Under the pieces are notes generated by a model. The model did no database searches and was not told the DNA's origin. It saw nothing but the letters and a program-made list of their open reading frames with translations. The position numbers and the translations under genes are program-made. 64,000 bases of DNA from Callorhinchus milii (taxonomy: Eukaryota), in the NCBI RefSeq assembly GCF_018977255.1, contig NW_024704742.1:57848001-57912000 (forward strand). Reading direction: 5' to 3'. Below are positions 6,801 to 58,763 of this stretch, piece after piece (position 1 is the first letter of the stretch; every line of letters begins with the position of its first letter).

Positions 6801-7885
6801 TCTATTTTCTTTTCTGAGCTTCTTGTCCCTCCTAGACACACTCTGCTTATCTCCCTCATTATTCTGCTTTACCACCTTCATCTTTCTTAGTTTTGCTGGT
6901 TTACTTCAGACTTTAACTGTAGCCTTCCCTCTCCACCCCTCACCCCTTAGTAGTTTAAAGCTCTGCCTACCTCACTATTTATTCATTCTTCCAGGTCATT
7001 GGTCCCAGCCCGGTTTAGGTGGAGTCCATCTCTATGAAATAACTCCCTTTTCCCCCAATACTGGTGCCAGTGGCCCATAAAATGAAACCCCTGCCCTCCG
7101 CACCACTTTTTCAGCCACGCATTTAATTCTTTAATTTGTTTGTGCCTGTACCAATTTGCACATGGCTCAGGCAGTAATCCCAATATTATTACCTTGGAAG
7201 TTCTATTTTTTAATTTAATTCCCAATTCGTTGAACTCACCCCTTAAGTCGTCCCTACTAGTACTACCTATATCGTTGGTGCCAATGTAGATTACCACACT
7301 TGGATCTTCCTCCTTCTGCCTCAAATTCTTCTCCAGCTTTGAAGAGATTTCCTTCACCCTGGCCCCAGGAAAGCAACAGATCCTTTGTATCTCCTGGTTG
7401 CAGCTGCAGAGAAGTGTGTCTGTCCTCCTGACTGTCTCGTCCCCAATTACAACTGAATTCCATCTTTCACCCCCCACTTTTGTGGCCTCCTGTATAGAGA
7501 TGTTGGGAGTTAGTTTGCCCATCTTCCTCACAGGCTTCCTTGTCCACACAGGTTGCAAGTATCCCGTACCTGTTGGACAAGGTTAAAGCCTGGGGCTTCT
7601 CCGCCAATCTCTCTGGGGTCCCCTTACCTTCCTGACTGTCAGTCACCCTGTCCTGTTCCTGACTAGTAATGTAATCTATACTTTCCCTGAGACTCAGGGG
7701 AGTGACTGGCTTTACTGACTGTGTATTTGTAGGTGAACATAGTAGCCATTTGCACAAGGCAATGTCCCACAAACAGACACGAAGAGAATGATCAATTTTA
7801 TTTGGGGATTGTTGGTGCTTGATCTCACAATGTTCTGATTCAGAGGCAAGAGTCCTACCAACTAGCCAGGCTGACACCTGGCTCA
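3808..7885 (-). mobile_element. Deu-type SINE split by the CR1 insertion (3' half about 3808-3900, 5' half about 7712-7885)
   Basis: (aat)n tail plus L2-type stem on the left; gactgtgtatttgtaggtgaa..tgtcccacaaacag and a tRNA-like head on the right, colinear with intact SINE copies. Confidence 0.75.
3905..7710 (-). mobile_element. Near full-length decayed CR1 LINE: SGNH-esterase ORF1 (about 6983-7558), ORF2 APE endonuclease (about 6000-6780), RT (about 4800-5400), C-terminus (4175-4723), 3' UTR
   Basis: VVIGD..CCFPGA..IGTNDIG (ORF1 esterase); LYTNARSIRNK, GDFN, SDHN (endonuclease); YRPVSLTSVVGK, QHGF, YLDFQKAFDKV (RT); LVRPHLEYCVQFWSPY. Multiple frameshifts and stops. Confidence 0.93.
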
Positions 7886-31850: not shown

Positions 31851-34800
31851 CCTTGCATTTGATATAGCGCTTTTCACTTCGGGAGGACGTCCCAAAGCGC
31901 TTCACAGAACACATTGTAAAGTGAATTGACTGTATATTTGTGGGCGAATATCCCCAGAAAAGCAATTTGTCAATTGACTAACAACCAGGTTCCTACTGGA
32001 GAAAGGAAAGTGAGTCAACGTTTTGGATGCACGACCCTTGAACTGACGAAGGGTCGTGGACGCAAAACGTTGACTCACTTTCCTTTCTCCATAGATGCTG
32101 CCTGACCTGTTGAGTTTTCCCAGCTCTCTCTGTTTTTGTACCAGATTCCTACTTACTGATAGGTAAACAGAGCGTGTGGAGTGAGGAAACTTGCTAAATG
32201 TTTCACCCTGCGCAGGAATCAAACCCAGGTCCTCTCGCTTGGGAGGCGAGTGCTCTAACCAATATGCTAAAGGAAGTCCACCTTTAATGGCCTGAGGCAA
32301 ACAGATTACTGGTGGAGTGAAGAGACAACTACAGAAAGTGATTGGTGAGCTTGGTGCCTTTCATTACATTCATGTAATTCATTTATTATGTTTTATGACC
32401 TGTGAAACTGAATACCAATCGCACAAACATCTCACACTGACCTTAAGGGGACATAAAACAATTTTGATCATCAACAACTTTTGAGAGGAGGAATGTTGCT
32501 GGTTCCTGATCAAACATGTGATCAGATTGAGAACAGAACATCCTGCTCCTTGAAATAAGCCTGGCGAAATCACTCAAACTTATGCAATATTATCATGTTG
32601 TTCTGTTTGGTGGCTTTGACCTTTCAAATGCCATCAACGTGCATTCTGTAAATCTGTGGTAGGTGCAATGAAGGGAGGCACCTGTTCACAGAATTTGAGA
32701 AGTAGCCCAGAAATTTCTGTTGGGCTTTCTGCCTTGCAATACATGATCCAGAGAGAGAGGGGATATTTTCCTATGGCTTGACAACAGATATTGAAATCAG
32801 ATCCTCTTTGTTTCCAGGACCAATGTTTTTCTTCTTCTGCACAAATATTTCATTAACATTTCTCTCACGATCTTGTGAACACAATTTAATGACAATTTAA
32901 TTGGAGCAGAATTTCCTTTGTTAGCAGTTAAGAAGTTAATGCTACATCTGCTTTACACAAAATAGACTAAATACCAAAAGACCAATACAGATAACATATA
33001 TACAGGTTAATATGAATGACTTAATGATATAATATATACATATTAATATTAATGAGAATTCTTTGCTGATAAAGTCTCTACTCACCATATAAGGAGGGAT
33101 ATGACTGTGATTATCCTTACGTGGAAAGTTCTAACCAAATCCACGTAATTGTGTTTACTTTTCAGTTTATTCGTGGATTTCAAAACCTAAAAAAGTGTAA
33201 AATAAACAAGTGATATGATATTCTACATATAATGTAAAATTCGTAAATAGAACCACCTCTACATTAAGCAGACTATTTACTATATCCAACCTTTTATGCA
33301 AAAATGATTGAAAGTATGTGTAGGTTCCTGATCAACTGTAGCATATCCTACAATATCTCAGGGACTAGTTGTTTCAAATAAATCTCAGCAGAAACAGTGT
33401 GCATGACAAAATAATATAAAACATGAGTGAAAGCTGGGACCCATATAAATAACATTTGATCTCTTATTGTTGATCCTTGTTTCTTTCAGTGCAGTTAGAA
33501 CACTAAAATCTTAATTGGTTGAATCTCTGTGGATGCCACAAAGATGGTGGAGGAGAAGTGGGTAGAAATTCAACCTTGGTTTTGATTTACTCAATTAACT
33601 TAGCATTCCAGAGTGTGCAGAATTTACAAATTAAAATATAATTGAAATTTACATTTATATATCGCCTTTCACATTAGGAGGATACCCCAGATGGATTGCA
33701 AATTGGCAAATTGAACTTTTAATCCAGTTTTAACTTTGAAAACAATTTTCTGTAAGTTTTTAAAAGAAATTTACAGAAAATGGTTTCAAAATTAAGGGCT
33801 GCAAATTCACATGAAAGTTATGCTCATTGGATTCAGAAGTTCCGGAATAGAAGGTCCAGACCTTTCAATTATCTTAGAGATTATTTACTTTGGCAGCATA
33901 ACCTTTTGCAAAAGATTCTAGTTATTAAAATTGGTGGCACTCTTTACTCCATGTGTACACTGCTTATAGAGAAATATAGCATAAAAGACAATTATTCTTA
34001 AAATATGTAAATTATTCCAGATTTTGATTTAAATTACCAACATGAGATAAAAACAGTTAAGGAAAATCACCATTTATTCAGTGGTGTCTCTTCATTGAAA
34101 TAGTGGAGAACAGTGCTGTTGGGTTATTTTTGGCCTCCAAAATGGTTTTGGAGTAAAAGGCAGTTTTGGCCTGCAAGGGGGAGAGGTAGTAGTTGTGCAG
34201 AACCTCGAACCATAGCTGGTGATGGATTGTGAGGCCGGATTTGTGCCATCTGCACTCAAGTGACCAGGTTTTAGTTTTGATGAGGTGGAGGTAACTCTTA
34301 CACCAGAGGAAGTGGGTAGATTTGGAGACAGAACTAGATTCCAGGGGGCAAAGGAGTGAGGGTTGCAGAGAGGCGATCGTTTAGCAGCTTTATGGCTGCA
34401 TCAGGATTGCTGTGGATAGAAGTGCAGAGGGAGAAGAGATCCGAGGAAGGATGTGTCTTATAACAAAACCCTGTCTCACAACATAAGACAGAAACAATAA
34501 AGGATAATCACCAGATATAACAATAAAGAATAATCACCATGTTATCGCTACGCTGAAATATCTCCCCAACATGTTTAATGCCATTTTTCTTAGCAGCAGC
34601 TTTCACAATGGCTTCTGCTTCTTCCACTCGGCCTTGAGATAGCAGCCACCTGGGAGACTCAGGTATAAACCTGCAAAAATGTGCATGTAGCTTAAGAAAG
34701 ATTTCTCAATAAACACGGCAGAAGACTGAATTGATTAATGAAATACTGAAATTGACAATTGTGTAGAAAGGCTTCTGAATTTCTTTAAATTAACAAGTTG

Positions 34801-40800: not shown

Positions 40801-43800
40801 GTGGGGGGGCGGGTTGCTGTGGACCCGTGGTTTCCAGATGAACAGCACACTTCTGAGTTCCAGCACAGACCTGCTGGCTTCCTGCACTAAAATTAGCTGC
40901 TGACATCACTATCTGCATGTAAGATATTTGTAGCATACAGGAAGAGGCATTAATGACATTTCCTGATATCGCATGTGCGTTCAATGCACAGGAAGTGATG
41001 CCAGTGGCAACCTGGTAACCATAACGACATCCATGCTTTCATACTCTGTTTTAACACAACTACTAAGATATTAATAATTATAACCTTCCATCCTCTGTGC
41101 CTCTGCTGAGCCTTTGATGGGCCTTTCTATAATAAGACACCAAAGTTGGCCTCCAAACTGTATCTGGACAATGTACGTAATTGGGATACTTTCACCTGAC
41201 ACTTATTAGGCATTGTGAATGGAAGACAAGCTGTTAACAAAACTTGTCTCTAGATTCTACATAATTCTTACAAGCAAATGCTAGAGGATCAAATGCGGAA
41301 AGAACTCTACGTAGCCCGTTAGTCAGTATGACTGGGAAATGGGAGATGTACAATCGTGGTTCATGGCTCGCACTACATTGAAACAAATCTAATATTAGCC
41401 AGTAAGTTATTGGAGAATCTTTAAGTAATGGGTCCTGTTCCAGGATTATATTAATTCCATAAATAATGTGATATTTATGTCTTCTTTTCCATTTAGTTTT
41501 TCTCTTTGTTTACATTCTTTTAAGTTTCTTTGATTTTTGGCCAATTTTCCCTCCTGATCTTCTGAAGTAGTTTTCCTCTTTGTTTACATTCTTTTCTGTT
41601 TCTTTGAATTTTGGCCAGTGTTCTTTCCTATCTTCCTGAAGGAGGTGACTCTTATAGTTATATGGACTTTACCTATCCACCAGTACCTTACCAAGTGTCT
41701 ATTCTTCAAGTGTGTGCCGAGATAGTATGTGTTAGTGGGCTATTGTCAGCATCCTCCTGGAAAATACATAGTCACTACACTTTAGTAAATCCTGGGAAGC
41801 CCTTTGAGACATCCTCCTGACATGAGAGGTGCTATGGGAAATGTAAGTGTTATTATTAGTATTATTATCATTGAACCATTGGCGATGTCATAATGTAGTC
41901 TTGACTAGATGTCCACAATTCCCAAAAGGATCACTAGACAGTGATGGAGAGAATAACCTTTAGCTGATTTGTTCTCTCCCTCGCCCAGGGGTGCTTAGGC
42001 CAATTGTAATTGCTATGGTTCCTCTGGATGAAATCATATTAATATGTATATCCAACATCCTCACCTCATAGTGTCTAGTTGTGCACTGGGTCCCATTGGG
42101 AGGGGGTTGCAAATGCAACAACAACAACAACAAGATTCCATTTATTGAGTGCCTTTCACGTCGGGAGGACGTCCCAAGGCACTGTACAGTTGGGTCAGGA
42201 CCCGAGCAGGGGGGAAATGGTCAGGGTGAGGGGAGGGAAGGGAGGGAGCGAGGAGGGGGTAGAGAGTCGAGAGGGGAGCTGAAGGCACGGTCAAAGAGAA
42301 AGGTTTTGAGACCGGCCTTGAAGGAGGAAAGGGAGGAGGCGGCGAAGGCACTGGGGGATAGAGGTGCAGAGCCTAGGGGCTGAGAGGCTGAAGGCCCGGC
42401 CACCGATGGTAGGGCGGTTGGGGCGGGGGATGTGGAGCAGACCGGAGTCAGAGGAACGGAGGGTAAGGGCAGGTAGGTAGGGGGATAGTAGGTCGGAGAG
42501 GTAGGAGGGAGCAAGGCCGTGAATGGCCTTGTAGGTGAGGATGAGGATCTTGAATTCGATCCTCTGGGGGATGGGGAGCCGGTGGAGGCGAGCGAGGACA
42601 GAGAGATGACCTGAGGAATATCTTCTGAGCAAATATTTAGATGCAATTAACCCAGTCCCAACAGAATTGAAAAGTTATTGTCTCTTTACAGAACAACAAT
42701 TTAGGAGTTCATATATTTCACACAGTCATATGTCTGCAGCATGCAGATTCCAAATATCATCCACCTAACATTTACAACAATAACAAAATGCATTTATACA
42801 GCACTCTTCATGAGGGGTAGGATCTTGGAGTGGCTAACTGTGGTGGAGGAGGACACCAAGCTGGGTGAGGGGGGAGGTGACCATAGTCACAGTCAAAGAG
42901 GAAGGTGTTCAGGTGTGATCTGAAGATGGGGAAGGAGGCGGCAAGGCAGTGTGATTGAGGGTGATAATTCCATAGAAACCTGAAAGAACAGTTGCTGATG
43001 ATGGTGCGGAGAGGATGAGGGACATGCAGCCAGCTGAGCAAGGGTGGCATGTAGTGGAGTGGGTGTAACCAGCTTGGGGAGGTAGGGAGTTAAAGTGATC
43101 TGGGCATGAATTGATCTGTATGCAAGTGTTAGGATGTTGAAATTGATCTGTTGTACATCAAAGAGCCATTGGAGCCTGGCAAGGACTAGGGTGACATGGG
43201 GTATGGAGTTTGGTGCAGGTGAGGATACCTGTCATAGGTTAGGTTATGCACAGTTCAGTCAATCTGAGAGATAGGCTGAGGAGGTTGGAGCCACAGATGA
43301 GAACAAGTAAGTGGGTGCCAAGGCGTATGGCTTCCGTCTTTTCAACATTAAGCCCCAAAAATTACATTCCATCTTGCAATATATTTTTTATTCATTATAA
43401 GAACTGTAGTTTTACCTATCTGATACTTGTCCTGAGATTATTGCACCACATAGGTTTCCGAGGAAAATCATGGACAATGACATTGGCCCTTTCCAGTCAT
43501 TGTCACAGACTAGATCCCACTGAAAGAAACAGAAAAGAAAGGGTTCATATAATTTCCATAGGGTAAAACATTTGTTATATGAAAATCTGGAAAATTGCTC
43601 CGAAAGGAAATTATTTTAACTAACTTTTTCACAAAAGGACCCAATTTGTGATATTTGCTAAATGCTGGAGAGAGATTATTAATAATAATAATCCTTGTAT
43701 CTGATATAGGTCCTTATCACATCTTCAAGCTGTCTCAAAGTGCTTCACAGAATATACTATAAAGTGAATTGACAGTATATCTTGTGTGTGAAATGGGGCA

Positions 43801-46800
43801 GCCAATTGTGCAGAGCAGTGTCTCACAAAAAGTTGTGGATTGAATGACCAAATTATTTTAATTTATTTTGAAGCAACTAATACCCTTTGATTGGCGGAAA
43901 CGTGATGCGCCAATCGTCTGACAACCGGGTTCCTACTAAGCAGAGGCATGTGGAGAAAGGAAAATTGCCCAACATATTGCCCTACCCATCAAATCTTGGT
44001 CCTCAGTTGCAAGGCGAGTGCTCTAACCACTAATCTACAGGATTCCACCTCAGTTGACATTTGCCCTATTTATTAGCATTTTAGACCATCCAGAATTTAG
44101 CAAATTGTTGAATTGAGTTTGAACTTTGAAAGACCTTTTCTGTAATTCTTCAAAGAACGTACAGAAAACCAAAAATCAAAATGCTGCAGATGCTGGAAAT
44201 CTGAAATAAAAACAGAAGTCACTTTGAACATGAAGCAGGTCATGCAGCACCAATGGAGAGAGGAAAATGAGTTAACGTTTCAGGTCTATGACCTTCATCC
44301 AAACTGGATTCTGATGAAAGATCATGTACAGAAAAAACAACTTTAAAATAAAACCTACGTTTAAAAATTTGCCAAATCCTGGACTTTCAAAAATACAACA
44401 TCAATGAGTAAACCTAGACCTAGGTGGAATTTCTCTTCAGCCATTTTGATGTGCTATTTGTGACTCCTGGCTACAAACATCAAAAGCCAGTTAACTTGTG
44501 TGTAACATCGCAAAAGAGCTAAGTGTGAATTCCACAAGGTAGCAAAGTCTGAAAAAGAGGCCAGAGAGTAAAACAATTTCTGCCCTCCAATACTCTCCCT
44601 ACCAGCAATTTCCTGAAGATAACAAATATAAGATAAGAATACGCTTGATTTTAAGAGTTGCTTTCCTAAATACTCTAGCATGTAATTCACTTGATTTTTC
44701 TGGTCATTTGGATGTTTAACACACATGGAAACCCATCACCATGGTTAAGAGTGTCCTAACCAGACTGAGAGTTTCATGTATGCCATGTACACTTGGAACA
44801 TCCTCTGTTTGGAATGGAATATACTCTTTTTCCCTAGGATGCATTGTGCTAACCTAATTCTGGAAGGTAAGTAGAGGCTAGTCGGTGCAGGTTTGCATGA
44901 GCCAAAGCTTGAGCAACCAGGAGTGGGTGTTATGGTACTACTGGAGTTTAACTTTGAGAAAAATATAAGGCCTGCTATTGAAAGACTGGGGGCACAAAAC
45001 AAAAAGGTATTGGGATCAGATGGATTATTCTCCTTGGGATGCCAGCTTGAGGGGTTAATAGGAGCTGAGTGGAAAAATCCATGCCCCCAATTAATGATTT
45101 AGCCCTCCAAGCCCTGCCACTCCAAGTCCTACCGATGAGCCAGGCTGGCTGATCTGTCATCAACAGTGCCCTGGAATATAAAGGAACAGCCTTCCTTAGG
45201 AACCAGATTAGTGAGACTAGCACTAAAGGTTGGCTCTATTCCAACATTCTGTTGGCCATGCATGTCAACTTGGAGCCAGTTCAGCTCCAAAGGGAGCCTG
45301 CTAACTGGCACCCCAAGGAGAATAATCCATCTGATCTCAATGCCTTTTTGTTTTGTGCCCTCAGTCTCTATGTCACCTCTTTATTTGTTCACACTTTTCT
45401 GTTTGCCATTTCCTTTTCTCATGTTTAATTGACAACCTAGTTGTTTGATTGTTTTTTGTATTTGGATTTTAATGAAGCTCTCCTTCAAAGTTCAAAGATA
45501 TGATACTACATCCAATGGTTCTTGTGTCTGTTTATTTTGTTTCTCATATGATGTCTGCTTAATTCATCTGTCATATTAGTCCTTTGCCTTTCTTGCAAAG
45601 GATTATTGGATTTCTGAAGTTTTGGAAGCTTTTTGTTGATGATTCCATTCTACATGCATCAATTTCCTTCTGATTGCTTCATCCCATTTAACAAGCAATG
45701 GCTAAATTACTGAAGCATGCAATTCAATAAGACAATGAAAATCTTGTTTCTTTTCCACAATTCAAATATGCAGTTTCTGCACGTCTTTGCCAATTGCAAG
45801 ACACAGCTTCAGACTTAATCCTTCATCAATTGACATTCATGACCTCACTATCCCCTTATCTTAGAAGAACTTTTCCATTTAATAAATTGGTGAAGGACTC
45901 CCAAGGAAGTCCCTTTCTCCTTTCATGCTGTACAATTATTTCACCCTCAACAGCTTTTAAATCTATAAAGCCTGATTGTCTCCAAGACTTGAATACTGTT
46001 CCAACATTTGAAGTGGTCTTTCTAGCCCCTTTCACAGTACTCTGGACATGTTAGAAAAGCATATTATCCTACAAATAAACCCATCTCTCTACCCGAGACC
46101 CCATTCTTTCTCATTCTCTCAACCATAACCTTTTTATATTTTTGCTATTTTGTTAATATTGCTAAGGTCATTGTTCCTTTAAACTTTCCTTCTGTGTTTC
46201 TGCAAAGCTTCACTATCCACCATACATTCTCTTCCTCTTTCCTGAATCATCTCTGAATTCAAATCAAAAACAGTCTCTGATGCCCATTCTTTACCAGATT
46301 TCAAGATGTTGAAACTGTTTTACCTCCAATAATCCTTTTAAAACCAAAGCTTGTTAGTTATCTGCTACTTATCTCCAAAATATATAATACTCTCCCTTAC
46401 TCTTCTGAAACTTAGTGTTGGACCTACATGTTGTGTCTTCCCTCATTCGTCTCCTTTGACACGTCACTCTTTACCATTTCTCCAATCTCTCCCTAAAAAT
46501 TCCCCTCATCTTTTGCTCCCTGCAAACTCTCCAGCACTTTCCTCTCCAACATCTCCTCCCTCTATCTTCCCTCAGCCTCTACTCCAAACGCCTCCTCGTC
46601 TTGGGTAACTTCAACCTCCATTTTATTTCTTCTTGCTCCATCTCTGCTGACTTAGCCTCCCTTCTCTCTTTTCTTGATCTCTCCCTTCACTTTAACTCCA
46701 TCAACCACATCCATGGTCATCCCCTTGACTTGGTGATTACTTGGGGCTTTATCATCTTAGATATCACCATCAATGTTGACCACTCTATCCTTCTCCACCA

Positions 46801-49800
46801 CCTTTCCTCTCTTCACGATTCTGTTATTTCCTGGATTCAATTTTACCTACCCCAACTTCTCCACTTCCTATCTGCCAACGGCTTCTCCGCCCGATCTTGT
46901 ACCATCACATGCGCCTCTGTCCTCAGCCCTCTCCTCTAATATCTACATGCTTCCACTTGGTGATGTCATCTGAAGGAATGGGGTTAACTTCCACATGTAT
47001 GCGGATGGCACCCAACACTATCTCTCTGCCTCCACCCTCAATTTCAGCTATACAGCTGTTCTGGTTAATTGGCTGTCAGACATCAAGTCCTGGATGAGAA
47101 CTAACTTTCTCCAGTTGAATGCCGACAAGATAGATGCTCTCCTTTGGGCACCTATAAGATTCTTCTAACCTAAGGTGCTGATAGCATCAATCTACACAGA
47201 TGCACTGAGGCAATGCAGAATCTCAGTGACTTGATTGACTCAACTGCCCTTCAAACTCTGACACACTCAGTTTTTCCGAATGTCTGTAGCATTGCCCATC
47301 TAAGCCACTATCTCTCCCTTTGGGTACCATGGCCCATATCCATACATTGATCACATCCACACCAATTCTCTGAAAGCTGTAGATGCCAACTCTTCCCTCC
47401 ACAAGCTGCAGACCATCCAGAATTCTGCAGCTTGTGTGCTCTCCCACATTAGGTTCCATGAACCTAACCCATCATTGCTCTGCTCCACTGCCCCCCTCCC
47501 TACTCCTCAGAGGAGGAATTCAAGATCCTAATTCTCGCTTTTTAATCTCTCCACAGTTTTGCCCCAACCTATCTTTGTGACCTCCTTAAACCATATTAAT
47601 CTACAGGCTCCCTCCATCCCCTGGCTGCCTGCCCCACTATCGGCAGTTGGGCTTTCAGTATATCTACCGCCCTTGGGAACTCCAACCTTCTGTCACTTTG
47701 TTCCCTCCAATCGCACTCTGCTTGGTCCTCACTATGCCCAAATCTAACCACCAGCTTGAATGCTAACCTTTGACTGTCTATTGCCTTGGGACAGCCTCCT
47801 GACATGAAAGGAGCTATATCAATGCAATTTGTTGTTGTTGTTGTTTTGTTAGTGCATTCAAGATTTTAGATTTAAAAATGATGTAATAATAATCCTTTAA
47901 AAGATATCATCACCTTTTATGTCTAAATGACATCTCTAAGATTCACAAGATTTACTGTAAAATGTAGTGACTGTGTATTTTGTAGGTGAACATGGCAGCC
48001 AATTGATACACCGAGTCCCATAATTAGCCATGAAGTGAATGCTTAATTTCATCTGCAGAATTGTTGGCCAGAACACAAAGAGCAACTCCCTTCTCTTTTC
48101 AAATTGTGCAATGGGATCTGAACAGTTAACATCTCAACAACAAAAACAACTTTTATTTATGTAGCGCCCTTCATGCAGGGTAGCATCCCAGAGCACTTGA
48201 CAGTGGCGGAGCATGATGCTGAGCTGGGGCAAAATGACCGTAAGCACGGTTGAATAGGAAGGTCTTCAGGCATGACCTGAAAATAATGATCATAATAATA
48301 ATCCTTGCATTTGATGTAGTGCCTTATCATGTCTTTGAGATGTCTCAAAGCGCTTCGCAGAATATGCCGTAAAGTAAATTTACTGTATATTCTGCGGGCA
48401 AAATGCGGCAGCCAATTGCACACAGCAGTGTCCCACAACAGTCGTGGATTGAGTGAACAATTTATTGTTATTAATATTTTTGAAGGAATTATTACCCCCA
48501 GAAAAGCGATCCGCCAATCAACTAACAACTGGGCTCCTACTTACTGCTAGGTAAACAGAGGCGTGTGGAGTAAAGAAACTTGCTCACGCTTCGCTCTGCA
48601 GGAATCTAATCCAGGTCTCCCTCTTGGGAAGCGAGTGCTTTAACCACTGAGCTACAGGACTCCACAACTACTTCTGCCTGTTCAGATGGATGTTAAAGGT
48701 CACGCATCACTATTCAAGAAGAGATTTTTATCCATAGACACTCATATTTTTCTATTTAATTTGTCACAATTGATTGAAACAAACACACTTTTTTCCTGAC
48801 ATCCAACAACACGCAATGAGCAATGCGGGAAGCTACTCATTTCAGACTAACTGTTCTGGGATTTTTTTTCCATTGTAGGCCAATTTCATTTCAGTATGAA
48901 ATACTCAGGCTACATGCACATTTATTTTTAAATTTCTGTTTCTATTAGCCAAAGGTTTGAGTGAGTCAGCAACCCCAAAATAAAAAAGCCACATTTTCAG
49001 GCACATGTCTCTTTCCCCAAAAATAAAATCTGGAATATCAAATTGAGCTGAATATTTCTGGTGAAGATTTGTAACACTGAGAGATTCAAGCTATTTTCTC
49101 TGATGTTGCACTTCCCTAACTCATGTACATTTAGTGTCATAGATTGGTTTAATAAATTAATTTAATAAAATCTTCAGCAACTGATAGTGTTAAAACAGAG
49201 TTGTATTTAAAATAACCTACAGCTTAAAATTCATTTGATGAATCAGGCAGTATTTTTAGAATCAAGGGACCACAGATTGCACAATCCAGAGACATACTGA
49301 ACGCATGCAGAGACAGACTCATAAATCAAACGCTTTATTGCTACATGGGGAAAATCTTAGATGCCTATCAGAAACAACAACAACAACTTGCATTTATATT
49401 GCGCCCTCACAGGGGCAGCGTCCTGGAAGGCTTGACAGTGGTCGAGTCTGACTCTGAGCCAGGGGGAGAGGGAGGCAGGAGGTGATCATAAGCACAATCA
49501 AAAAGGAAGTTCTTTAGGTGGGATTTGAAAGTGGGGAGGGAGGGGGCAAGGCAGAGGGGATTGAGAGAGAGAATTCTAGAGTTTCAGGGCATAGTGGCTG
49601 AAGGCACTGCCACCTATGGTGGAGTGCAGGGGATGAGGAACATACAGGAGGCTGGAGCCATCCGAGCGGAGGCAGCGGCTGGTGGGGGGGTAAGCAAATC
49701 GGATAAGTAGGGAGGTGAGAGGGCTTGAAAGGATTTGAAAATGAGTGAGAGGATCTTGAAATTGATCTGTTCAGTAATTGGGAACCATTGGAGATTATCA

Positions 49801-52800
49801 AGGACTGGTTTGATGGGAGTTTTGTGCAGGTGAGAATTCGGATAGGGCGTTTTGAATTAATTGGAATTTGTGTATTGTGAAGTCCACTGAGGAGGGCATT
49901 GGAATAGTCCAGCCAGGAAGTGACAAAGGCCTGAACGAGGGTTTTGGGTGCTTTTGTTGTGAGGTATGGACAGAGGCAGAAAATTGACGTAGGTGGAAAA
50001 AAGTGGTCCTGGTCAAGGTACAGATGTGAGGTAGAAAGGAAAGCTGGGAATCGAACCTGATGCCAAAGTTGGACATGGGTTCGGTGCGTCTGAGGGAGAA
50101 CCCAGTGAGGTTGAGGAGTTCAGACCAGCAGACATTGATGGGAGCCAAAGTGAATGGCTTCTGTCTTGCCGACATTCAATTGTTGGAAATTTGCACTCAT
50201 CCAGGCATTGATGTCCGTCAAACAAGCTGACCGGACATCAGGGGACTAGGAGTCGCAGCTGAAGGAGGAGAAGTAGATTTGGGTGTCATCCGCATACATG
50301 TGGAAGAAACAGACAAGACAAGACAAACTTCTTATTAAGGACCCCGGAGGAGTACAGGATCATTAGTTTTGACAGTTGGTGTCCTGCATCGCCTCTCGTA
50401 TCAGCCTGGCGCTAGTGGTAGGACTCTCGTGTCTGAGTCAAAAGATTGCGGGTTCAAGCCAATATGGAGACTTGGAATCACATGGACTAAACTGACACTC
50501 CAATGTAGTGCGGTGTTGCATTAAAGGAGGTGCTGTCCTTCGATGAGACATTAAACCAAGATTCCATCTGCCTGTTCAGGTGGATGTTAAAAATCCCATG
50601 GCACTATGAAAAGAGAACAGAGTTTCTCCTGGTGTCTTGACCAACAATCCCCCAAATAAAATTAGTCACTCACTCCATGGCTGTTTATAGGACATTGCTC
50701 TGTGCAGCTGGCTGCCGCATTTCACCTACAAAATGCACAGTCACTCCACTTTACAGTATATCCTGCAAAACACTTGAGATGTCTCAATGACGTTATATCA
50801 AACGCAAGGAGTATTATTATTATTATTATTAATGGAACTCTTGCTGATGGTTCCTAACCTGCTCTGGTACTAACCAATGGGGTATCTCTCAAATACTAAC
50901 CAATGGGGATCTATCACTTTAACAAAAACAGAAAGAGCTAGGAAAACTCAGCAGGTCAGGCAGCATCTATGGAGAAAAGAAAGTGAGTCAACATTTCGGG
51001 TCCATGACCCTTCGTCAGAACGGTTCTGATGAAGGGTCGTGGACCCAAAACGTTGACTCACTTTCTTTTCTCCATAAATGTTGCCTGACCTGCTGATTTT
51101 CTCAGCTCTCTCTGTTTTTGTTTCAGATTTCCAGCATCTGCAGTATTTTGTCTTTTGTTGGGATCTATCACTTTTGCTGGTTGATACTCATACCTGTTGG
51201 TATTTAAGTCAATATCAAGATTGTCCAGTGGATATATTTAGCTACCTTGTTATGTCTATACTCCGATGGTTCTAGGCATGAATATAATCACAATGTGTGG
51301 TTTGCTGTTTCTGGTGCTTCACAGTTATTATTAATATTAGTATTAAAGTTATTATCGGCGCCTTGGGACATCCTCCCGACGTGAAAGGCACTATATACAA
51401 ATGTAACTTTATATTGTATTATTATTATCACTACTAATATTACCAGCCTCTGTCAGGTCTGTCTGACAGGTTTCCAGCAAATGTCAGGCCTCTCTCACAG
51501 ACTACCTGCCCCTTTCAGTCCCAAACTCCATCCCTCTTAGGTTCCACTGCAAAGCTCCCTCCAGTGTGACCTTATAGCTTAAGTGCCAGGCTGGCTCAGG
51601 TGGTAGCACTCTCACCTATGAGTCAGAAGACCTTCTAGCCCTCTCAGACATATCTTGCAGGTTCTGGCTCCTCTCAAGCCTTTCTCTAAGCCCCCAGACT
51701 CTGTCCGATCTCTTTGTCAGGCCTCTCTGTCAAGCCTGGTTGTCATTTGTTCTGCCTAGTATTTGTCTGCTTGTGATCATGCAGGATGAGACTTCATAAG
51801 TCTAAGGTGATCTCACTTCTAATACCAGTGTACAATATCCCCGAGGGTTTGCCAAGCCAGACAGATATTGAATAACCAAAGCAACTGACATGGTTCATGA
51901 ATCACATGGTATATTTATACAGGGGGAAACCTTAGTGGCTCTAACAACAAATTCGAACAAACCTAGTACAACAATCAATGTCTTAAAACACCTATTTCAA
52001 CTCACACAGTTCCCACCCTGCTCAGATTCTCAGTGACATGGTCCTGCCATGCAGCTCAGCATCAGCCTTTCCTTTGTTTTCCCTCTTTCTCAGAGAGTGA
52101 CCTGGCCTTGGGTCAGAACTTTAATATGACCCAAGTTCCACCCTTTCAGACCCACTGCAAAGCCCCCTCTGATGAGGCTTAGGTGTCACGCAACTCTCAC
52201 AATAACAACAACTTGCATTTATATAGCGCCCATCACGCATGGTAGTGTCACCCCTGAGTCAGAAGGTTGTGGGTTCAAACCCCACATCAAGACTTATTAT
52301 TATTATTTGGTCTAGGCTGACACTCGAATGCAGTGTTAATGGAATATTGCATTGTTGAAGATGCTGTGCTTTAGATTCAATCAAGGCCTCGCCTGTCTGT
52401 TCAGTTGGATGTTAAAAGATCCCATTGCACTATTGGAAAAGAGAAGGAAGTTTCTCAACAATTTTCCGATCTATGAAGTGCTGTGAGATGCCTCAACATG
52501 ATGATAAATTAAATACAAGGTTTGTAATAGGTCTGGGGGACACACACACCACATCACTGCTATACAAATGTAATTCGTTGTTGTTAAACCTTGTTACATT
52601 TCAGTCTAGGTTTTCTTACTGTAGCAAATATTAATTTACCAAAATTATAACATTGAAATATAAAAACAAACAATTATTGTCCTGCTGGGTGGTCCCAAAG
52701 TAAAAACAAATTATAATCCTAAATTTATCTAAAAAAAAATTAACTTATTTAATATTTGTTTTTAAAAAGCAAACTAATTTGCAAAAATAATTTTCAAAGG

Positions 52801-55800
52801 CTGTTTCCAAAGGGGAACTTCAATGCAATATTTGGTTATTTCTAGTAATGTCATGCTCAGTGGAATTCAAGATCAATTTCTGTAATTAATGATAAACCTT
52901 GCATTGGACACCTTTTACATCAAGATCACATCTCAATGTGCTTCATGTACTGTACCGGTGAAAGTGGCAGATAATTTGCATACATCAATGTCTCACAAAC
53001 AGCTATAAAGTAAATAACCAATTTTATCTGGGGTATTGTTGGCCAGGACACCGAGAGAAATTCCTTTCTCTTTTCAAATAGTGTCATTGGATCTTTAAAA
53101 TCCACCCAAACAGAGTCACACAGGATCTGGGTTTAATGTCTCATCTCAAGGATGGCATCTTCACGAGCACTGCACAATGTAAGCACTGTATTGGAGTGTC
53201 AGCTTGCATGTTCAAAGTCCCAACACACAGGATTTGAAACTACAGCCTTCTAACTCAGAGACAAGTGTGCTAACAAATAATAATAATAATTATCCTTGCA
53301 TTTAATATAGCACTGTATCATGTCTTCGAGACGTCTCAAAGCACTTCACAGAAGATACTGTAAAGTGAATTGACTATATTTTTTGGGCGAAACACAGCAG
53401 TGTCCCACAAACAGTCGTGGAATGAAATAACCAATTTAGTACTTTTTTTTTGTCGGAATTATTACCCTGGAAAAGCGATATGCAGATCGACTAACAACCG
53501 GGTTCCTACTTACTGCTTGGTAAACAGGGGCATGTGGAGTAAGGAGTGAGAAAGTGTTGGAACCTGTTACATAATATAGGTTTGCTCCATGACTATGCAC
53601 ATGCCTCAGAATATGGTCTTCTAAAATTATAAACACTTCTTTGAAAAACATTTCCTTCAGAGAAATAACAACTTTCATTTATAGCGCTCTTCACACAGGG
53701 TAGTATTTTGGAACACTTAACTGTGGTGGAGCCTGACACCGAGCCAAGGGGAGGGGACCGTGGCTGTAGGCATAGTCGAAGAGGGAGATCTTAAGCATGA
53801 TCTGAAAATAGGGAAGGAGGATACAATGTGGTAGGCTTGCACGGGAGAGTGCTAGAGTTTCAGGGCATAGTGGCTGAAGGCATGGCCAGCAATGGTGGAA
53901 CGGAGGGGACGAGGGACATGCAGAAGGCCGGAGTCAAAGTGATATTATAGGCTATTCAGCCCAACATAAATCTATCCCTTTGGACAAACATAAACACAGT
54001 CCAATCCAAATTTTAAAAAGGCTTTGTATGGAACATTGCTGTAAAAAATCATTAGATTGATTTGAAAACTCAAGCCTGTTTGTTTTATTTGCAATGTAGG
54101 AAGAAAAAATTAAATGAGTATTATTAGTATCTATGCACTAAACTATGAAAACTGTGCAGATTCCAAACTAGCACCAGCTTTCAGTCATGCAAAACAAAGA
54201 AAAAGCTCACATAGTTTATTTTACTAACAAATATGTTTATCTTCATTTACCCATAATTTTATATTTTTGTAAAAACAAAGGAAAGACGGGCACATAAATG
54301 AATCTAGTGGATTAAAACATGTAAACTCTACTGTTGGGAAGTATAAATGTGTCTTCTAGTGCAAACTATTGCTTTGCTATTAAACATGTAGTTGGACTAA
54401 GCAGCTGATCAAATCAGCTTTGTAATCTTTCTCTGAATCCTTTCATACAATATAACAATAATCTTTCTATTTGATAAAGCACTTTTCATGTCTTCTAGAT
54501 GTCTCAAAGTGCTTCACAAAATATACTGTAAAGTGAATTGACTGTATATTTTGTGATACAAGCAATTACTATACGAGTATCCACTTTGTGTTGCCTTTCA
54601 CCAGCTGCCAGCTCATTTCATACCTCACACATGCTGACCTTGCTGGTTAATATATCTCCACTTAGCTGGTAGCGTCACTCCAATCTAAAATTAGACCAAT
54701 AAGTGTCAGAATCATGTGCTATAGACCAACTAATGTTGTCATGTCTTCAGACAAGGAGGTGAAAAATGCACCAGGTCACATGTTTTATCATTATTCGTGA
54801 ACGTACCAAATTGGCAACAATTATGGTCAAACAATATAATAATTAGCAATTGGTCTGCAGGTTACAAAGTATAGTGACTGTGTATTTGTAGGCAAATGCG
54901 GCAGCTAATTTGTGCTCAAAAGTAACTCACTAAATTAATTGGAATTCCCTGATACTCTGTTACTGAACACATAAACTCAAGAAAGAAACTCCATGAACCA
55001 TCTGCCTAGCAAAAGGGGGGAAACTCTGTACAAAAAGGGGCAGGCATATAACTGTATTTCTCCTATAAGATAAAGGATATACAAATAAAATTCTCCCGCG
55101 GTGTGATTCGAAAAGAGAAGTAAGTTTTTTCCTGGAGCTCTGGTTAACAACCTCTCAAATATAATTTAATTCATGGCTTTTGTGGGATATTGCTGTGCAC
55201 AATTATTAGCCCCACTTGCTATCAAAATACACATTCACTTTGCAGTAAATCTTGTGGAAGCACTTTGAGATATTTTCTTGGCATAAAAGGCACTGTATAA
55301 AACAAAAGGATTATGTATTTATCAGCAACTAGGAATTCAATACGTAGAGGCTGGGATGGTAATCGCAAAGATCAATTTCTGCCTTGGAATGCTCATCTAT
55401 TCAAATAAATTCCTCAAATAAGTAATGAGCTAATGTCCAAGCAAATTCTCAACGTGATTGGAAAGTTGCTCAGTCAAACTCCACCCCACAGTTAATATTA
55501 ATGATATATTATAGACCAGAAGCATTTGTTCTCGTTTGTTTTGAAATTGACGAAAGACGAATTTTGTTAGATTCAACAGAAATAGTTCAAAAGAGATTCT
55601 AGTGAGAATTAGGAGAATCAGAATTTACACTGTTATTTTGGCAGTCTATGTTAAGATAATTGAAGTTCCCCATTATCACTATTCTTTGGTTTTGCATCTT
55701 TCTGAAATCTGCTTGCAGATTTGCTCATCTATCTCCTTCCCACTCTTTGATGGTCTATAGTATGCACCTAACAGAGTAATGGCTTCTTTTCGGCTCCTTA

Positions 55801-58763
55801 CCTCTAACCAAATAGGTTCTGTTTTTGGTGACTCTAGCACATCATCCCTTTCCCGGGCCGTAACAGTGTCTTTAATCAATATTGCCATCCCTTCTCCTTT
55901 TTTTCCTTTCCTATCCCTCCTGAATACATTGTCGCCAGGAATACTCAGCACCTTTTCCTGCCCTTGATTGAGCCAGGTCTCCATTATTGCCACTACATTA
56001 TAACCCCATGTGAGCCTGAAGCTCACCAATCTTATTTGTCACACTCCGTGCAATTACACACATGCACTCCAAGACCGACTGAGTCTGCTCTGCATTTCTC
56101 TCCCATCTAATCCCTCTTTTTTCTGGACTACTCCTTATTACATTGCTATTCATCTATCCCAGGCCTCTGTGTAACTTGTTTCTCCTTCCTGATGCTACAT
56201 CCTGATTCCCTTCCCCCCTCGAAATTAGTTTAGTTTCCTCACAGTGCTAGTTACCCTTTGGTCCCAGCCCTGTTCAGGTGTAACCCATTCACCTTGTACA
56301 GGTCTCGCCTACCCCAGAACTGGTCCCAGTGTTCCAGGAACTGGAAGCCCTCCTTTCTGCACCATTTCTCCAGCCAAGCATTCATGTGTTTGATCCTGTT
56401 GTTTTGATACTCATTTGCATGAGGCACTGCGAGTCATCCAAGGATCACCACCTTTGAGGTCCTACTCTTTAGCTTTTTCCCTAGCTTACTCTTCCTGTAG
56501 GAACTCAGCCCTTATTTTCCCTACGTCAAGGATCCCAACATGGACCACGACTTCTGGATGTTACCCTTCCCCCTGCAGAATATTTTCACTCATTCCGTGA
56601 TGTTTTCAACCCTGGCACTAGAGAGGCAACATACCATGTGAAGGTCATGTTTTTGGTTGCAGAAATGTCTGATTTCTCCTTTGACCATTGTGTCCCCAAT
56701 AACAATTGCAATGATACTCTTCCCTGATCCCCATTGTGCATCTGTTTGCTTTCGACTCCCCTCCCAAGAGGGATCATCACCCTGACTGGTATTCAGTGCA
56801 GAGAACCAGTTTTTGAGTGCCACACTCTCAGGAGATTTCCGCACTACATGTCTCCTCTTCCTACCATGCTGGATGGTTACCCACTCACTCTCCTCCTAAA
56901 CCCTCTGTGGCTATGGGGTGACCACCTCTTGAAACATTCGAACCATGAAGTCTTCAGCTTCCTGTATGCCATGCACTGACACCAGCCTCTCCTTGAGCTC
57001 ATAAACCCTGAGCTCGTCTCAAGTCAGCCTGAGGGGCTTCCTACACATGTATTTGTCCAGGGCACACAAAGCATCCTGGAGTTCCCACATAGCACACATT
57101 GTGCATGCAAACAGTACATGAGAAAGTAGCTGAACTACCTACATTGTTTTATTTTGTTACTTTGATTATACATATTTGAGCCAGAGTTCCACTAGATTAT
57201 GTTTGTAATTTAACTGAACACTTAAATGAATAAAAAGTCAGATAGGTTGAAAGATACGAACAGTTCACGTGATTACAATAAGGATTAGAACAGTTTATAG
57301 GATCAAAATAACTTAGAATCTGTTAAATCAACAAGCAGCTTTAATTTCTTCCCTGCAACCAATCTGTGAATGGTTCTGCCTTTCATGCTATGGTGACTGA
57401 AATGCTATCCAACACGAAAGGCACTATATAAAGTCGTCCTCACTTTCAGGGCCATCCATAACCTTGCTCCCTCCTCCTCTCTGACCCCCTACCAACCTTC
57501 CCACTCCCTCCATTCAGCGGGCTCCAATCTGCTCCATGTCTTCTGCCCGACCCGCCCTACCATTGATGGCCGGGCTTTCAGCCTCTCTGCCCCCAAACTC
57601 TGGAACTCCATCCCACAACAACAACAACAAGATTCCATTTATAAAGCGCCTTTCACGTCAGGAGGACGTCCCAAGGCACAGTCCCTTTGTCTCGCTTCCT
57701 CCCTTGCCTCCTTCAAGGCCAGGCTCAAGACCCTCCTTTTCGATTGTGCCTTCGGTCGCCCTCCCACCTCTCTGCCTTGCTTCAACCCTACTCCACCCCT
57801 CCCCCTGCTCGGGTCCTGACCCCTGATTGTCCAGCATCTTGGGACATTCTCCAGACGTGAAAGGTGCTCTATAAATGTAATTTTGTTGCTGTTGTTGTTG
57901 TTGCTGTTGTTGTTGTGTCTTAGATATCAGAGTACCTTATGTCTTATTACCAATGTCTTAATAAAGTCTAGGTGGAAAGGAGGTTGATATCTGTGATCGG
58001 TCTTTAAAGGATAGATGCAAAATTGTGATGTTTTCAAATATATGCAATAACACATTCATTGGTCACTACAACAACAAAATTACATTTGTATTGCGCCTTT
58101 CACATTGGGAGGACGTCCCAAAGCGCTAAAAGTGTTATCAAAGTGTTAGTGCTGTAAAGCATCATATTTTTCACCCCAGTACTACAAACAACTGTGCCAA
58201 ATTTTGGTTTTCTCTTCTCATTTTCTCTGATTGTAAAATCCAAATATTTGAAATTGGCCACTTTAGCACCTTGTAATTTGCAGTTAAGTATAGGTCAAAA
58301 CATGAAAACATGATTCAAATCAGTTAACTTCGAGAAAAGTAATGTTTTCTACTGATTCTCTTAGTGTGTTTTCTAAAAACAAATTCACAATTCTTACCTG
58401 AGAGACAATTGTAGAGATGTACCTGTCAGTGCTGTACTCCCAGCCATTCACACAGGGCTCAGTCTCACGTGTTGTGTCATTGAAACCGTCTGTTACAGGA
58501 GTTTTGTATCTTCTACATCGACTGTAGATCATCTCACCATCCACCTCCTCTACAGGCAGCAGTGAACTCAGATTGGCTTCTCCAGTGGTTCCATTCAGAG
58601 AGTTAGGCAGACGGCAGTGATGCTGAGGGGTGTCTGCCAGAAACACCATGGACAAACCCACATAGCCATTAGGGATAATGGTGATACTCAGCAGCAAGAA
58701 CATAATTCTCTGGAAGGGACCCCACTCTCCCAGAAAAGCAGTTGCTTCATCATAATCTTGCAT
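10227..58763 (-). CDS. SLC22A5: OCTN-type organic cation/carnitine transporter (SLC22A4/SLC22A5-like), multi-exon gene; exons 1-9 join to 1565 nt, terminal exon unresolved
   Basis: N-terminus [19 protein letters not shown], plus [42 protein letters not shown] and LPETYG motifs. Exon sizes 104/155/172/101/215/183/136 match the vertebrate SLC22A4/5 structure as I recall it. All junctions are GT-AG with compatible phases. A4 vs A5 orthology cannot be decided by eye. Confidence 0.93.
11460..13200 (+). mobile_element. Highly degraded, rearranged CR1 ORF2 fragments
   Basis: gtgtatctggactttgaaaagcatttgacaaagt (YLDF.KAFDKV) about 12335; ttagtgaggctggagttggagtattgt (LVRxxLEYC) about 12772. Confidence 0.65.
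14765..15325 (-). mobile_element. L2 3' fragment
   Basis: [25 protein letters not shown] ORF2 end, [12 protein letters not shown]2 tail. Confidence 0.8.
15800..18060 (-). mobile_element. Old degraded L2 fragments
   Basis: Purine-rich L2-type sequence; [23 protein letters not shown] and VPQGSILG remnants (ORF 17481..17795 and neighbours). Confidence 0.65.
18110..18520 (-). mobile_element. tRNA-derived SINE (SacSINE1/Deu-like)
   Basis: Head ctggctgaattagtagcactctcacctctcagtcagaggttgtggattcaagccc on the minus strand; gatcccatggca core. Confidence 0.75.
19885..21790 (-). mobile_element. Old CR1 fragment interrupted by RTEX-like insertions
   Basis: CR1 tail atcatagaatgttacagc at 19889; RT remnants on both sides of 20700-21590 (VVDTDFQ on the left, KGRLC*TNL on the right). 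Confidence 0.6.
20705..21590 (+). mobile_element. RTEX-like LINE 3' fragment (same family as 1800-3345)
   Basis: [24 protein letters not shown]; colinear with 2460-3345; ends gtcagacacctggctgaccaaaaac. Confidence 0.75.
23814..23996 (-). CDS. SLC22A5: SLC22A5-like exon 8 (183 bp, [15 protein letters not shown]...[35 protein letters not shown])
   Basis: Inside ORF 23806..24060; acceptor tttcacag, donor G|gtaagt. Confidence 0.95.
25365..26210. mobile_element. L2 fragment (minus, about 25370-25550) adjacent to CR1 fragments (plus, about 25560-26210)
   Basis: ORF 25330..25539 ([15 protein letters not shown]); cagcatagttttgtgaaaagaaaatcatgcctgactaat = [13 protein letters not shown]. Confidence 0.65.
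27565..27912 (-). mobile_element. tRNA-headed Deu-type SINE, full length
   Basis: aataatccttgcatttgatatagc tail, Deu core ggcagccaattgcacacagcagtgtcccacaaacag, head gtggagtcctgtagc..ggttcgattcc. Confidence 0.85.
28364..28578 (-). CDS. SLC22A5: SLC22A5-like exon 7 (215 bp, [12 protein letters not shown]...LLLVRFVPT)
   Basis: Inside ORF 28347..28592; acceptor ttcttacag, donor A|gtaaga. Confidence 0.95.
28775..29072 (-). mobile_element. Deu-type SINE, 5'-truncated
   Basis: Same tail and core as 27565-27912. Confidence 0.8.
29660..29830 (-). mobile_element. CR1 3' UTR/tail fragment
   Basis: cataggaatgtagcaacaggagcaggccactcagcccc..tcatggctgatc, same as 3905-4060. Confidence 0.75.
29993..30865 (-). 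mobile_element. Young 5'-truncated L2 (ORF2 C-terminal part, 3' UTR, (ttg)n tail)
   Basis: [51 protein letters not shown]; CpG-rich; possible TSD aattac (29987-29992 / 30864-30869). Confidence 0.92.
31818..31850. repeat. (AAT)n microsatellite (SINE tail)
   Basis: About 11 AAT units. Confidence 0.9.
31998..32139 (+). mobile_element. Penelope-like palindromic mini-element with a hammerhead motif
   Basis: Inverted arms 31998-32039 / 32048-32091; CTGACGA-A-GGGTC-GTG-GACGC-AAAA-CGTT at 32043-32071; 14-bp TSD accaggttcctact / accagattcctact. Confidence 0.75.
33086..33186 (-). CDS. SLC22A5: SLC22A5-like exon 6 (101 bp, [34 protein letters not shown])
   Basis: DLVRT motif; acceptor ttttttag, donor TG|gtgagt. 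Confidence 0.93.
34538..34670 (-). CDS. SLC22A5: SLC22A5-like exon 5 (133 bp, [22 protein letters not shown]...RSDNM)
   Basis: PESPRW motif; acceptor tttttgcag; donor ATG|gtgatt keeps phase 0 for exon 6. Confidence 0.9.
35677..35848 (-). CDS. SLC22A5: SLC22A5-like exon 4 (172 bp, [16 protein letters not shown]...FFPLWW)
   Basis: Hand translation; acceptor ctatccag, donor TG|gtaagt. Confidence 0.95.
36010..37023 (-). mobile_element. Cluster of three Deu-type SINEs (about 36010-36170, 36470-36625, 36715-37023)
   Basis: Repeated tail and core; the last copy has an A box TAGCTCAGTGG and a B-box-like GATTCGATTCC. Confidence 0.85.
37852..40190 (-). mobile_element. L2 LINE, about 2.3 kb 5'-truncated copy
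   Basis: [59 protein letters not shown], then L2 tail; frameshifted. Confidence 0.92.
40437..40591 (-). CDS. SLC22A5: SLC22A5-like exon 3 (155 bp, [10 protein letters not shown]...[13 protein letters not shown])
   Basis: Inside ORF 40375..40602; acceptor tttatag, donor G|gtaact. Confidence 0.95.
42117..42600 (-). mobile_element. Young L2 3' fragment
   Basis: [41 protein letters not shown]; near-identical to 29993-30340. Confidence 0.9.
42775..43350 (-). mobile_element. Older L2 fragment
   Basis: L2 tail and degenerate ORF2 end. Confidence 0.65.
43416..43519 (-). CDS. SLC22A5: SLC22A5-like exon 2 (104 bp, [35 protein letters not shown])
   Basis: Hand translation; acceptor ttttctgtttctttcag, donor AG|gtaaaa. 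Confidence 0.95.
43680..44048 (-). mobile_element. Deu-type SINE, full length
   Basis: (aat)n tail, Deu core, tRNA-like head. Confidence 0.85.
44169..44325 (-). mobile_element. Older Penelope-like palindromic mini-element with a degenerate hammerhead motif
   Basis: Minus strand GGATGA-AGGTC-ATA-GACCT-GAAA-CGTT-AACTC; short inverted CTGATGAAAGATCAT on plus; 10-bp TSD gtacagaaaa (44159-44168 / 44326-44335); tgctgcagatgctggaaatctgaaa matches the 51121-51150 tail. Confidence 0.7.
44695..45365 (-). mobile_element. RTEX-like LINE 3' UTR fragment
   Basis: Reverse complement of the family tail (acatggaaacccatcaccatg) and of the 2750-2930 segment. Confidence 0.7.
46450..47850 (+). mobile_element. 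Old L2 fragments
   Basis: [18 protein letters not shown] (endonuclease), FHMYADG (RT), L2 tail plus (ttg)n at 47780-47850. Confidence 0.8.
48290..48665 (-). mobile_element. Deu-type SINE, full length
   Basis: Tail, core and head gtggagtcctgtagctcagtggttaaagcactcgc. Confidence 0.88.
49373..50306 (-). mobile_element. 5'-truncated L2 (second subfamily)
   Basis: [11 protein letters not shown] at 50278-50305, LSFLPHI, (ttg)n tail. Confidence 0.85.
50400..50830 (+). mobile_element. tRNA-derived Deu-type SINE, full length
   Basis: Head tagtggtaggactctcg..gggttcaagcc, cccatggcact core, (tta)n tail. Confidence 0.8.
50985..51022 (-). ncRNA. Minimal type I hammerhead ribozyme motif (intact core)
   Basis: Minus strand: GUU CUGACGA A GGGUC AUG GACCC GAAA UGUU GACUC. 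Confidence 0.6.
51022..51059 (+). ncRNA. Minimal type I hammerhead ribozyme motif (GAAA>AAAA mutated)
   Basis: GGUU CUGAUGA A GGGUC GUG GACCC AAAA CGUU GACUC. Confidence 0.5.
52890..53545 (-). mobile_element. Two adjacent SINEs (52890-53275 SacSINE-like, 53276-53545 Deu-type truncated)
   Basis: Tail and core matches to other copies. Confidence 0.75.
55665..57100 (-). mobile_element. CR1 5' fragment (ORF1 esterase plus ORF2 endonuclease start), degenerate
   Basis: [21 protein letters not shown] (ORF1); [27 protein letters not shown] (endonuclease); GNFN at about 55670. Confidence 0.85.
57435..57915 (+). mobile_element. L2 3' fragment with (ttg)n tail, containing an inverted L2-tail insertion
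   Basis: [23 protein letters not shown], tail 57833-57915. Confidence 0.8.
58398..58763 (-). CDS. SLC22A5: SLC22A5-like coding exon 1 (366 bp, [19 protein letters not shown]...YISTIVSQ)
   Basis: ORF 58320..58763; donor CAG|gtaag at 58398/58397; TM1 plus large extracellular loop with Cys residues and N-glycosylation sequons (NGT, NLS, NDT). Confidence 0.95.

Follow-up and report, generated by a model that had tools for sequence, protein, structure and literature searches.

How does a palindromic insert with hammerhead ribozyme motifs on both of its strands come to lie in an intron of a cartilaginous fish? The insert, here called copy 1, was picked out by a first-pass annotation of a 64,000-nucleotide (64-kb) stretch of Callorhinchus milii DNA, referred to below as the window. 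Our answer, to which we give a probability of roughly 0.85, is that copy 1 consists of two head-to-head copies of a hammerhead-bearing unit of ~137 nt, likely the product of one retrotransposition event carried out by the reverse transcriptase (RT)/GIY-YIG protein of a Penelope-like element (PLE), and likely inactive since.

The direct repeat GGGATCTATCACTTT, at 50906-50920 and 51160-51174, is identical at 15/15 positions and encloses an insert, 50921-51159, of 239 bp. These are its only two matches in the window at up to two mismatches, and the chance of finding an exact 15-mer within 20 nt of both insert edges is ~2.5e-6; the insertion between perfect 15-bp repeats stands as annotated. Aligned over 101 columns, the arms (50921-51021 and 51023-51122) show 10 differences, made up of nine transitions, four of them at CpG, and one gap. 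Each arm has TTTTGTT as its outer end. Together they are predicted to form a hairpin of -166 to -170 kcal/mol (z = -20.4), a stability equalled by none of 200 shuffles. The annotated inverted repeat of about 100 bp is thus borne out by arms of 101 and 100 bp; its 3-nt loop belongs to the predicted fold, a single nucleotide, G51022, separating the arms in the sequence. The short unpaired tail that had also been described measures 37 nt, in keeping with the 30-40-nt tail known for PLEs. No coding sequence lies between the repeats, implying, in line with the proposed mobilisation in trans, that the protein was made elsewhere. Immediately to the left of the insert, and overlapping the left target duplication, a 15-bp word recurs at 26-bp spacing (50868-50908), as if the target had undergone a local tandem duplication at an earlier date. 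The coordinates are collected in Table 1.

Table 1. Positions in the window of copy 1 and its parts, of the related copies and of the flanking host exons.
Feature	Position	Strand	Remarks
Left target-site duplication	50906..50920	none	15 bp
Right target-site duplication	51160..51174	none	15 bp
Short, tail-less arm of copy 1 (inverted copy of the repeat unit)	50921..51021	-	101 bp
Apex, single base between the arms (G51022)	51022..51022	none	
Long arm of copy 1, portion common to the short arm	51023..51122	+	100 bp; begins at the common 5' edge of the family
One-sided tail of copy 1	51123..51159	+	37 nt; the family often has its 3' edge at 51159; tail also present in copy 3
Minimal type I hammerhead, complete core	50987..51021	-	3-bp stem I, 5-bp stem II, stem III AUGU replacing ACGU; predicted cut 50990/50989; from descriptor match and arm alignment
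Minimal hammerhead with G12 changed to A at 51047	51023..51057	+	G in most family members
Copy 2, same subfamily as copy 1	31990..32153	+	insert 31998-32145; 8-bp duplication; short arm ~42 nt; intron 6
Copy 3, other subfamily	44159..44335	-	insert 44169-44325; 10-bp duplication; short arm ~17 nt; intron 1
Empty-site control: paralogous SINE-like copy without insert	53486..53540	+	8-bp motif present once
Host coding exon 1 (SLC22A5-like)	58398..58763	-	followed by a GT donor
Host exon 2, closing intron 1	43415..43522	-	

Read from the apex, each arm follows the pattern GUU-CUGA(U/C)GA-A-GGGUC-NNN-GACCC-(G/A)AAA-(C/U)GUU-GAC, and the extra base between positions 9 and 10.1 and the G10.1-C11.1 pair are found in both. 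A strict descriptor of the minimal hammerhead, built for this analysis, has a single match in the window, on the minus strand at 51018-50990, and no match in 60/60 random 64-kb sequences. The plus arm fails the descriptor because 51047 is A in place of G12, giving AAAA instead of GAAA. The claim of a hammerhead motif in each arm therefore stands, with the correction that at copy 1 the complete core (CUGANGA / GAAA / UH) is confined to the minus arm. For the palindromic stem III, claimed as AACGTT, the reverse applies: the plus arm has it, whereas the minus arm reads AATGTT. Correspondingly, the self-complementary ACGU for dimer pairing (15.1-16.1) occurs in the plus arm and in the majority of the family, and the AUGU of the minus arm would give two wobbles. 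The proposed check against Rfam models gave no hammerhead family among the six matches at E<=10. Covariation in stems I and II over six arms amounts to one compensatory pair (G-C to A-U) among eight pairs, a value equalled in 228 of 500 shuffles.

Can copy 1 cleave? Its two motifs sit back to back on opposite strands, so that one transcript holds a single motif. The minus motif alone is predicted to fold as a hammerhead; in the full minus-strand RNA the predicted pairing probability of its stem II is 0.0, consistent with the annotated sequestration of this motif in the hairpin. G12 is described as the general base of the hammerhead in the cited part of PMC6155905. With this base missing from the plus core, and with the minus core predicted to be buried in the hairpin, its stem II unpaired, both ribozymes are predicted to be silent and copy 1 is likely dead.

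The minus-strand core has to be seen against the surrounding gene. At 58763-58398 lies an exon with 100% identity to Callorhinchus milii SLC22A5 isoform X1, and ten coding blocks of SLC22A5 map along the minus strand. Because the exons flank copy 1 and run on the minus strand, copy 1 falls within intron 1 and the pre-mRNA corresponds to the minus strand, just where the intact core had been placed. This position, together with thousands of family contigs from a run guessed to be RNA, might suggest that the host has domesticated the insert as an intronic ribozyme or as a small-RNA hairpin regulating the SLC22A5-like gene. We consider this highly improbable: the arms decay by CpG-type transitions without compensation, the predicted fold buries stem II, and in copy 3, which alone among the further copies shares this strand and intron, the core is damaged. 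As for a small-RNA hairpin, the best Rfam match is a plant miRNA, at 38.6 bits against a threshold of 85. Taken as a single locus, copy 1 is decayed retroelement debris in an intron and of little consequence.

Within the window, BLAST finds two further members of the family, and 3/3 copies are fold-backs, with three different geometries. Copy 2, which sits within a SINE-like repeat, has a rearranged apex and a long arm without most of its tail; copy 3 has the complete long arm, tail included, on the minus strand. The tail is thus 37 nt in copy 1, present in copy 3 and mostly missing in copy 2, and the target duplications measure 15, 8 and 10 bp. For copy 2 there is an empty paralogous site, 53486-53540, that passes from the single 8-bp word directly into the sequence of the right flank of copy 2, implying that its duplication arose through the insertion. 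Target-site duplication, claimed at first for copy 1, accordingly extends to all three copies. The contigs described below did not reveal an empty site for copy 1; X4 and X6, which lack cover at 51260-51320, are uninformative runs in this respect.

Other repeats are common in the window. The SINE-like family that hosts copy 2 is abundant, has a short triplet-repeat end, and is seen at 50400-50830, 27566-27913, 36701-37026, 48278-48666 and elsewhere. Broken LINE-like frames, RT and endonuclease-like by eye, lie at 4175-7582 (minus strand) and 37842-39657 and recur several times. At the arm-tail border of copy 1 (51113-51126, plus strand) a pyrimidine run followed by CAG resembles a 3' splice site; it has a match in copy 3 at ~44200-44215 on the minus strand, which, being on the host sense strand in intron 1, could serve as a cryptic acceptor.

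What, then, is the unit that spreads? Contigs of four of 24 sequencing runs, representing three organisms, were aligned to 50996-51320 at 85% likeness, and 5656, 9812, 10820 and 1752 contigs matched. Throughout these thousands of contigs, in all three organisms, the repeated unit is one arm of ~137-140 nt, and cover falls sharply beyond 51023-51159. The summed depth in run X1, 306,860 on the arm against ~8 on unique flank, is not a copy number and means only 'very many'. None of the runs listed as containing the sequence is declared as RNA, a point without bearing on expression. Among the 24 loose ends listed (there are 691 more), the best supported before 51023 comprise 154, 273, 369 and 56 contigs with an agreement of 0.36-0.40, their consensus ending in CCA or, in run X15, TCA; those behind 51150-51159 have an agreement of 0.37-0.48. 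The low agreement at 51023 implies that most such contigs continue into unrelated DNA, although the pile-up there is partly built in, the inverted arm being part of the reference stretch on that side. A C-rich consensus word upstream of 51023 is shared by runs X1 and X15, both from organism A; it may represent a parent element that continues upstream of the hammerhead, and the motif has no match in the window. At 51047, G accounts for 68-91% of the family depth, so that the core is complete in the commonest form of the family. In copy 1 the two arms agree in having T at 51066, compared with C in 84-99% of depth, and in the minority form of 51097-51112; this suggests that they came from one source or that conversion took place between them.

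These shared minority letters are also what would be expected if the palindrome itself were a non-autonomous, self-propagating mini-element, its hairpin RNA or either strand being copied whole in trans; apex-spanning contigs from other loci, and the lack of attached coding sequence, fit as well. Such a palindromic master is nonetheless improbable. The apex and the arm lengths differ among 3/3 window copies, and the hairpin of -166 to -170 kcal/mol would bury the motifs. Many joints have other geometries (11 of the 15 listed, from 74 in all, connect the 5' edge to forward arms cut at 51077-51135), and the 51023 loose ends with unrelated flanks, among those listed, represent copies without a matching inverted arm. 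Since the window copies differ in apex, arm length and duplication, the palindrome was likely built at each insertion, with no propagating palindromic unit.

The same observations bear on the proposal, made at first pass, that the palindrome represents a retrozyme-like, non-autonomous family. Non-LTR retrozymes, as described in parts of PMC7229834 and 10.64898/2026.07.22.740005, consist of direct tandem repeats, from which circular RNA is released between one ribozyme and the next. Copy 1 resembles them in being short, non-coding and PLE-related and in having a type I hammerhead, but differs in that its motifs are on opposite strands with no tandem units (same sources). No direct repeat of the unit is present at any of the 3/3 window copies, where the units are inverted, and retrozyme identity was rejected. 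With three copies unlike in apex and arm length, and with joints cut at many places, that part of the annotation was not sustained.

The features of copy 1 correspond much more directly to those of PLE insertions. PLEs are described in part of PMC3846280 as having inverted repeats head to head, an optional 31-bp tail and 8-10-bp duplications, with self-priming proposed, and in part of PMC8557442 as having in general an inverted, 5'-truncated copy and a 30-40-bp tail. Like the insertion units of these two accounts, copy 1 has head-to-head inverted repeats, a 30-40-nt tail at one end and a duplication of variable length, together with strong 5' truncation and a hammerhead in the terminal repeat. 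It departs from them in having no open reading frame (ORF) between the repeats and in the end point of both arms, an edge common to the family that lies 3-6 nt short of the hammerhead core; its 15-bp duplication is also longer than the 8-10 bp of the rotifer elements (PMC3846280, in part). The hammerheads themselves are of a known kind. Sections of PMC4209133 describe minimal hammerheads in PLE terminal repeats; solo motifs number thousands per genome and are attributed to truncated PLEs, some pairs lie on opposite strands 100-700 bp apart, and monomers do not cleave. The motifs of copy 1 share with those of metazoan PLEs in these sections the type I core, the extra base before stem II, the G10.1-C11.1 pair and a palindromic 15.2-16.2 without helix III; stem II is 5 bp and stem I 3-4 bp, compared with 7-8 and 4-5 bp in the schistosome families, and, unlike the motifs in these sections, those of copy 1 are back to back and both damaged. 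Shark terms gave no match in two supplementary files of PMC4209133; file 1, which possibly contains ribozyme alignments, lay outside that search. A survey in which the elephant shark was among the species reports PLEs from every one of them (PMC4350176, in part).

A search of metagenome contigs with the core-plus-stem-II pattern provides a second link to PLEs. It found one locus, L001, whose sense strand has a hammerhead with this core and stem II ~160 nt past the stop codon of a 280-residue frame. This frame has a GIY-YIG domain (Pfam E 4.9e-5, above the cut-off), reads as an RT-thumb/GIY-YIG ORF whose homologues have RT domains, and carries a CxxxxCxxC motif before the nuclease, a linker feature given for Neptune and Nematis (PMC8557442, in part). 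L001 1-1298 appears as the 3' end of a Neptune/Nematis-like PLE, with a loop different from that of the chimaera family. Because it resembles the chimaera unit in the hammerhead only, L001 is not the autonomous partner; its motif behind an RT/GIY-YIG ORF does imply that this exact motif is a feature of PLE ends. The pattern had no match in viral contigs, the tail 21-mer none in viral or metagenome contigs, and the arm none in plasmids. No PLE coding remnant was found in the 64-kb window with 126 PLE-type proteins and a profile. The profile gave no matches and the proteins just two outside the copies, both from one chimeric-looking protein, as well as a marginal match on copy 2 (24% identity, E 0.005), which we treat as chance. 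Among the named matches of two protein searches seeded with L001 (29 matches, and 120 listed of 279), most matches being nameless, there was no chondrichthyan PLE protein, and neither these searches nor the window yielded an RT/GIY-YIG ORF sharing the whole unit. Our search of the literature found no paper on this chimaera family, which may be catalogued in Repbase or Dfam.

Inverted terminal repeats, a tail of 30-40 nt, a variable target duplication and a minimal hammerhead form the published signature of PLE insertions and thus support a PLE origin for copy 1; with the motif of L001 in addition, the PLE derivation and the minimal type I hammerheads of the first-pass annotation are upheld. 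A foldback DNA transposon (MITE) with chance hammerhead-like words would have long inverted repeats and a target duplication too. That reading is scarcely credible and already largely refuted, as the repeats are not flush at both ends, given the 37-nt tail, the duplication varies from 8 to 15 bp, and in L001 the motif accompanies a PLE ORF. We conclude that copy 1 is most likely a minimal fold-back PLE insertion, of a kind already described and with a published architecture.

How might a PLE protein build such a structure? At copy 1 the arms are of one source type, their outer ends are offset by 37 nt and their inner edge is shared; across the three window copies the geometry is locus-specific. 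The enzyme of Poseidon from Anolis carolinensis (PAc) is reported, in the relevant part of PMC11167929, to cut and extend both target strands in vitro and to start reverse transcription at two sites, separated by the length of the tail, without homology and with no requirement for hammerhead cleavage. Copy 1 resembles PAc in having the hammerhead ~100-140 nt upstream of two 3' ends set a tail's length apart, and in the absence of target/template pairing at the short-arm junction. It differs in that the PAc ORF begins at stem II, whereas at copy 1 each of the three frames running from the core is closed by a stop inside the arm, and in that its target is not AT-rich, compared with the AT-rich ATT site favoured by the anole enzyme (PMC11167929, in part). 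We propose that a PLE protein would nick both target strands, 15 nt apart. The first nick would prime reverse transcription at the distal start site (51159), ending at the usual 5' limit of the template a few bases before the hammerhead core, while at the other nick a second copy of the same source would be made from the proximal start site, 37 nt further in (51122). The two cDNA ends would then be joined head to head and gap filling would leave the target duplication. The hammerheads, predicted not to cut at copy 1, would be passengers from the terminal repeat of the parent. The 37-nt tail of copy 1, the published tails of 30-40, 31 and 34 nt, and the equivalence of tail length with the distance between two RT start sites in vitro support this proposal. 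The target of copy 1, the failure of the searches above to find an RT/GIY-YIG ORF sharing the whole unit, the covariation no higher than in shuffles and the missing empty site of copy 1 speak against it.

Priming at the second nick is not the only route. Fold-back self-priming of the first cDNA could also produce an inverted copy, and the ends of the short arms of copies 2 and 3 fit it at least as well. We lean somewhat towards the second nick for copy 1, and no further than that, since neither copy 2 nor copy 3 has a short arm ending at the proximal site.

The inner edge raises a related question, namely whether the arm has become a lineage in its own right. On this reading the single arm of ~137-140 nt would be a true non-autonomous, SINE-like lineage, transcribed from a start of its own at the 5' edge and amplified without need of full-length PLE transcripts. 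We think this less likely than not, and see it as a refinement of a PLE-mediated insertion and not as its replacement, the fold-back still being made at insertion. The common 5' edge with unrelated upstream flanks, the CCA shared just before it and the existence of subfamilies are consistent with such a lineage. The CCAGTTC at this edge also fits the initiator consensus YYANWYY. Penelope is described in part of PMC2377424 as having a 34-bp repeat, an internal promoter in the terminal repeat and an intron. Against this, the pile-up at 51023 is partly built into the reference stretch, the C-rich upstream consensus in X1 and X15 suggests that some copies extend into a longer parent, and the same short copies would result if a tandem autonomous transcript were primed close to its 5' end. 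The inner edge may accordingly be fixed by a transcription start, by the CAG as a splice acceptor or by a stall of reverse transcription; in Drosophila Penelope a splice acceptor is placed at helix I (PMC4209133, in part). A more specific form, in which the ~140-nt arm is a PLE-mobilised chimaera SINE, independent of autonomous transcripts and present in tens of thousands of copies, and transcribed by Pol II from a start of its own that coincides exactly with hammerhead stem I, we regard as doubtful.

Finally, copy 1 offers a clean, minimal example in a cartilaginous fish of the PLE insertion signature, with arm, tail and duplication readable to the base. Its family, with thousands of copies, could be mined for how PLEs make the inverted second copy and could show what fixes the 5' edge beside the hammerhead, both of them questions that are unsettled in the cited parts of PMC11167929 and PMC3846280. 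If the arm is indeed a SINE-like lineage, its many fold-back insertions, in each of which the inner edge is fixed and the two outer ends are separated by 37 nt, would amount to natural in vivo evidence by which to decide whether PLE integration uses twin priming or fold-back self-priming.
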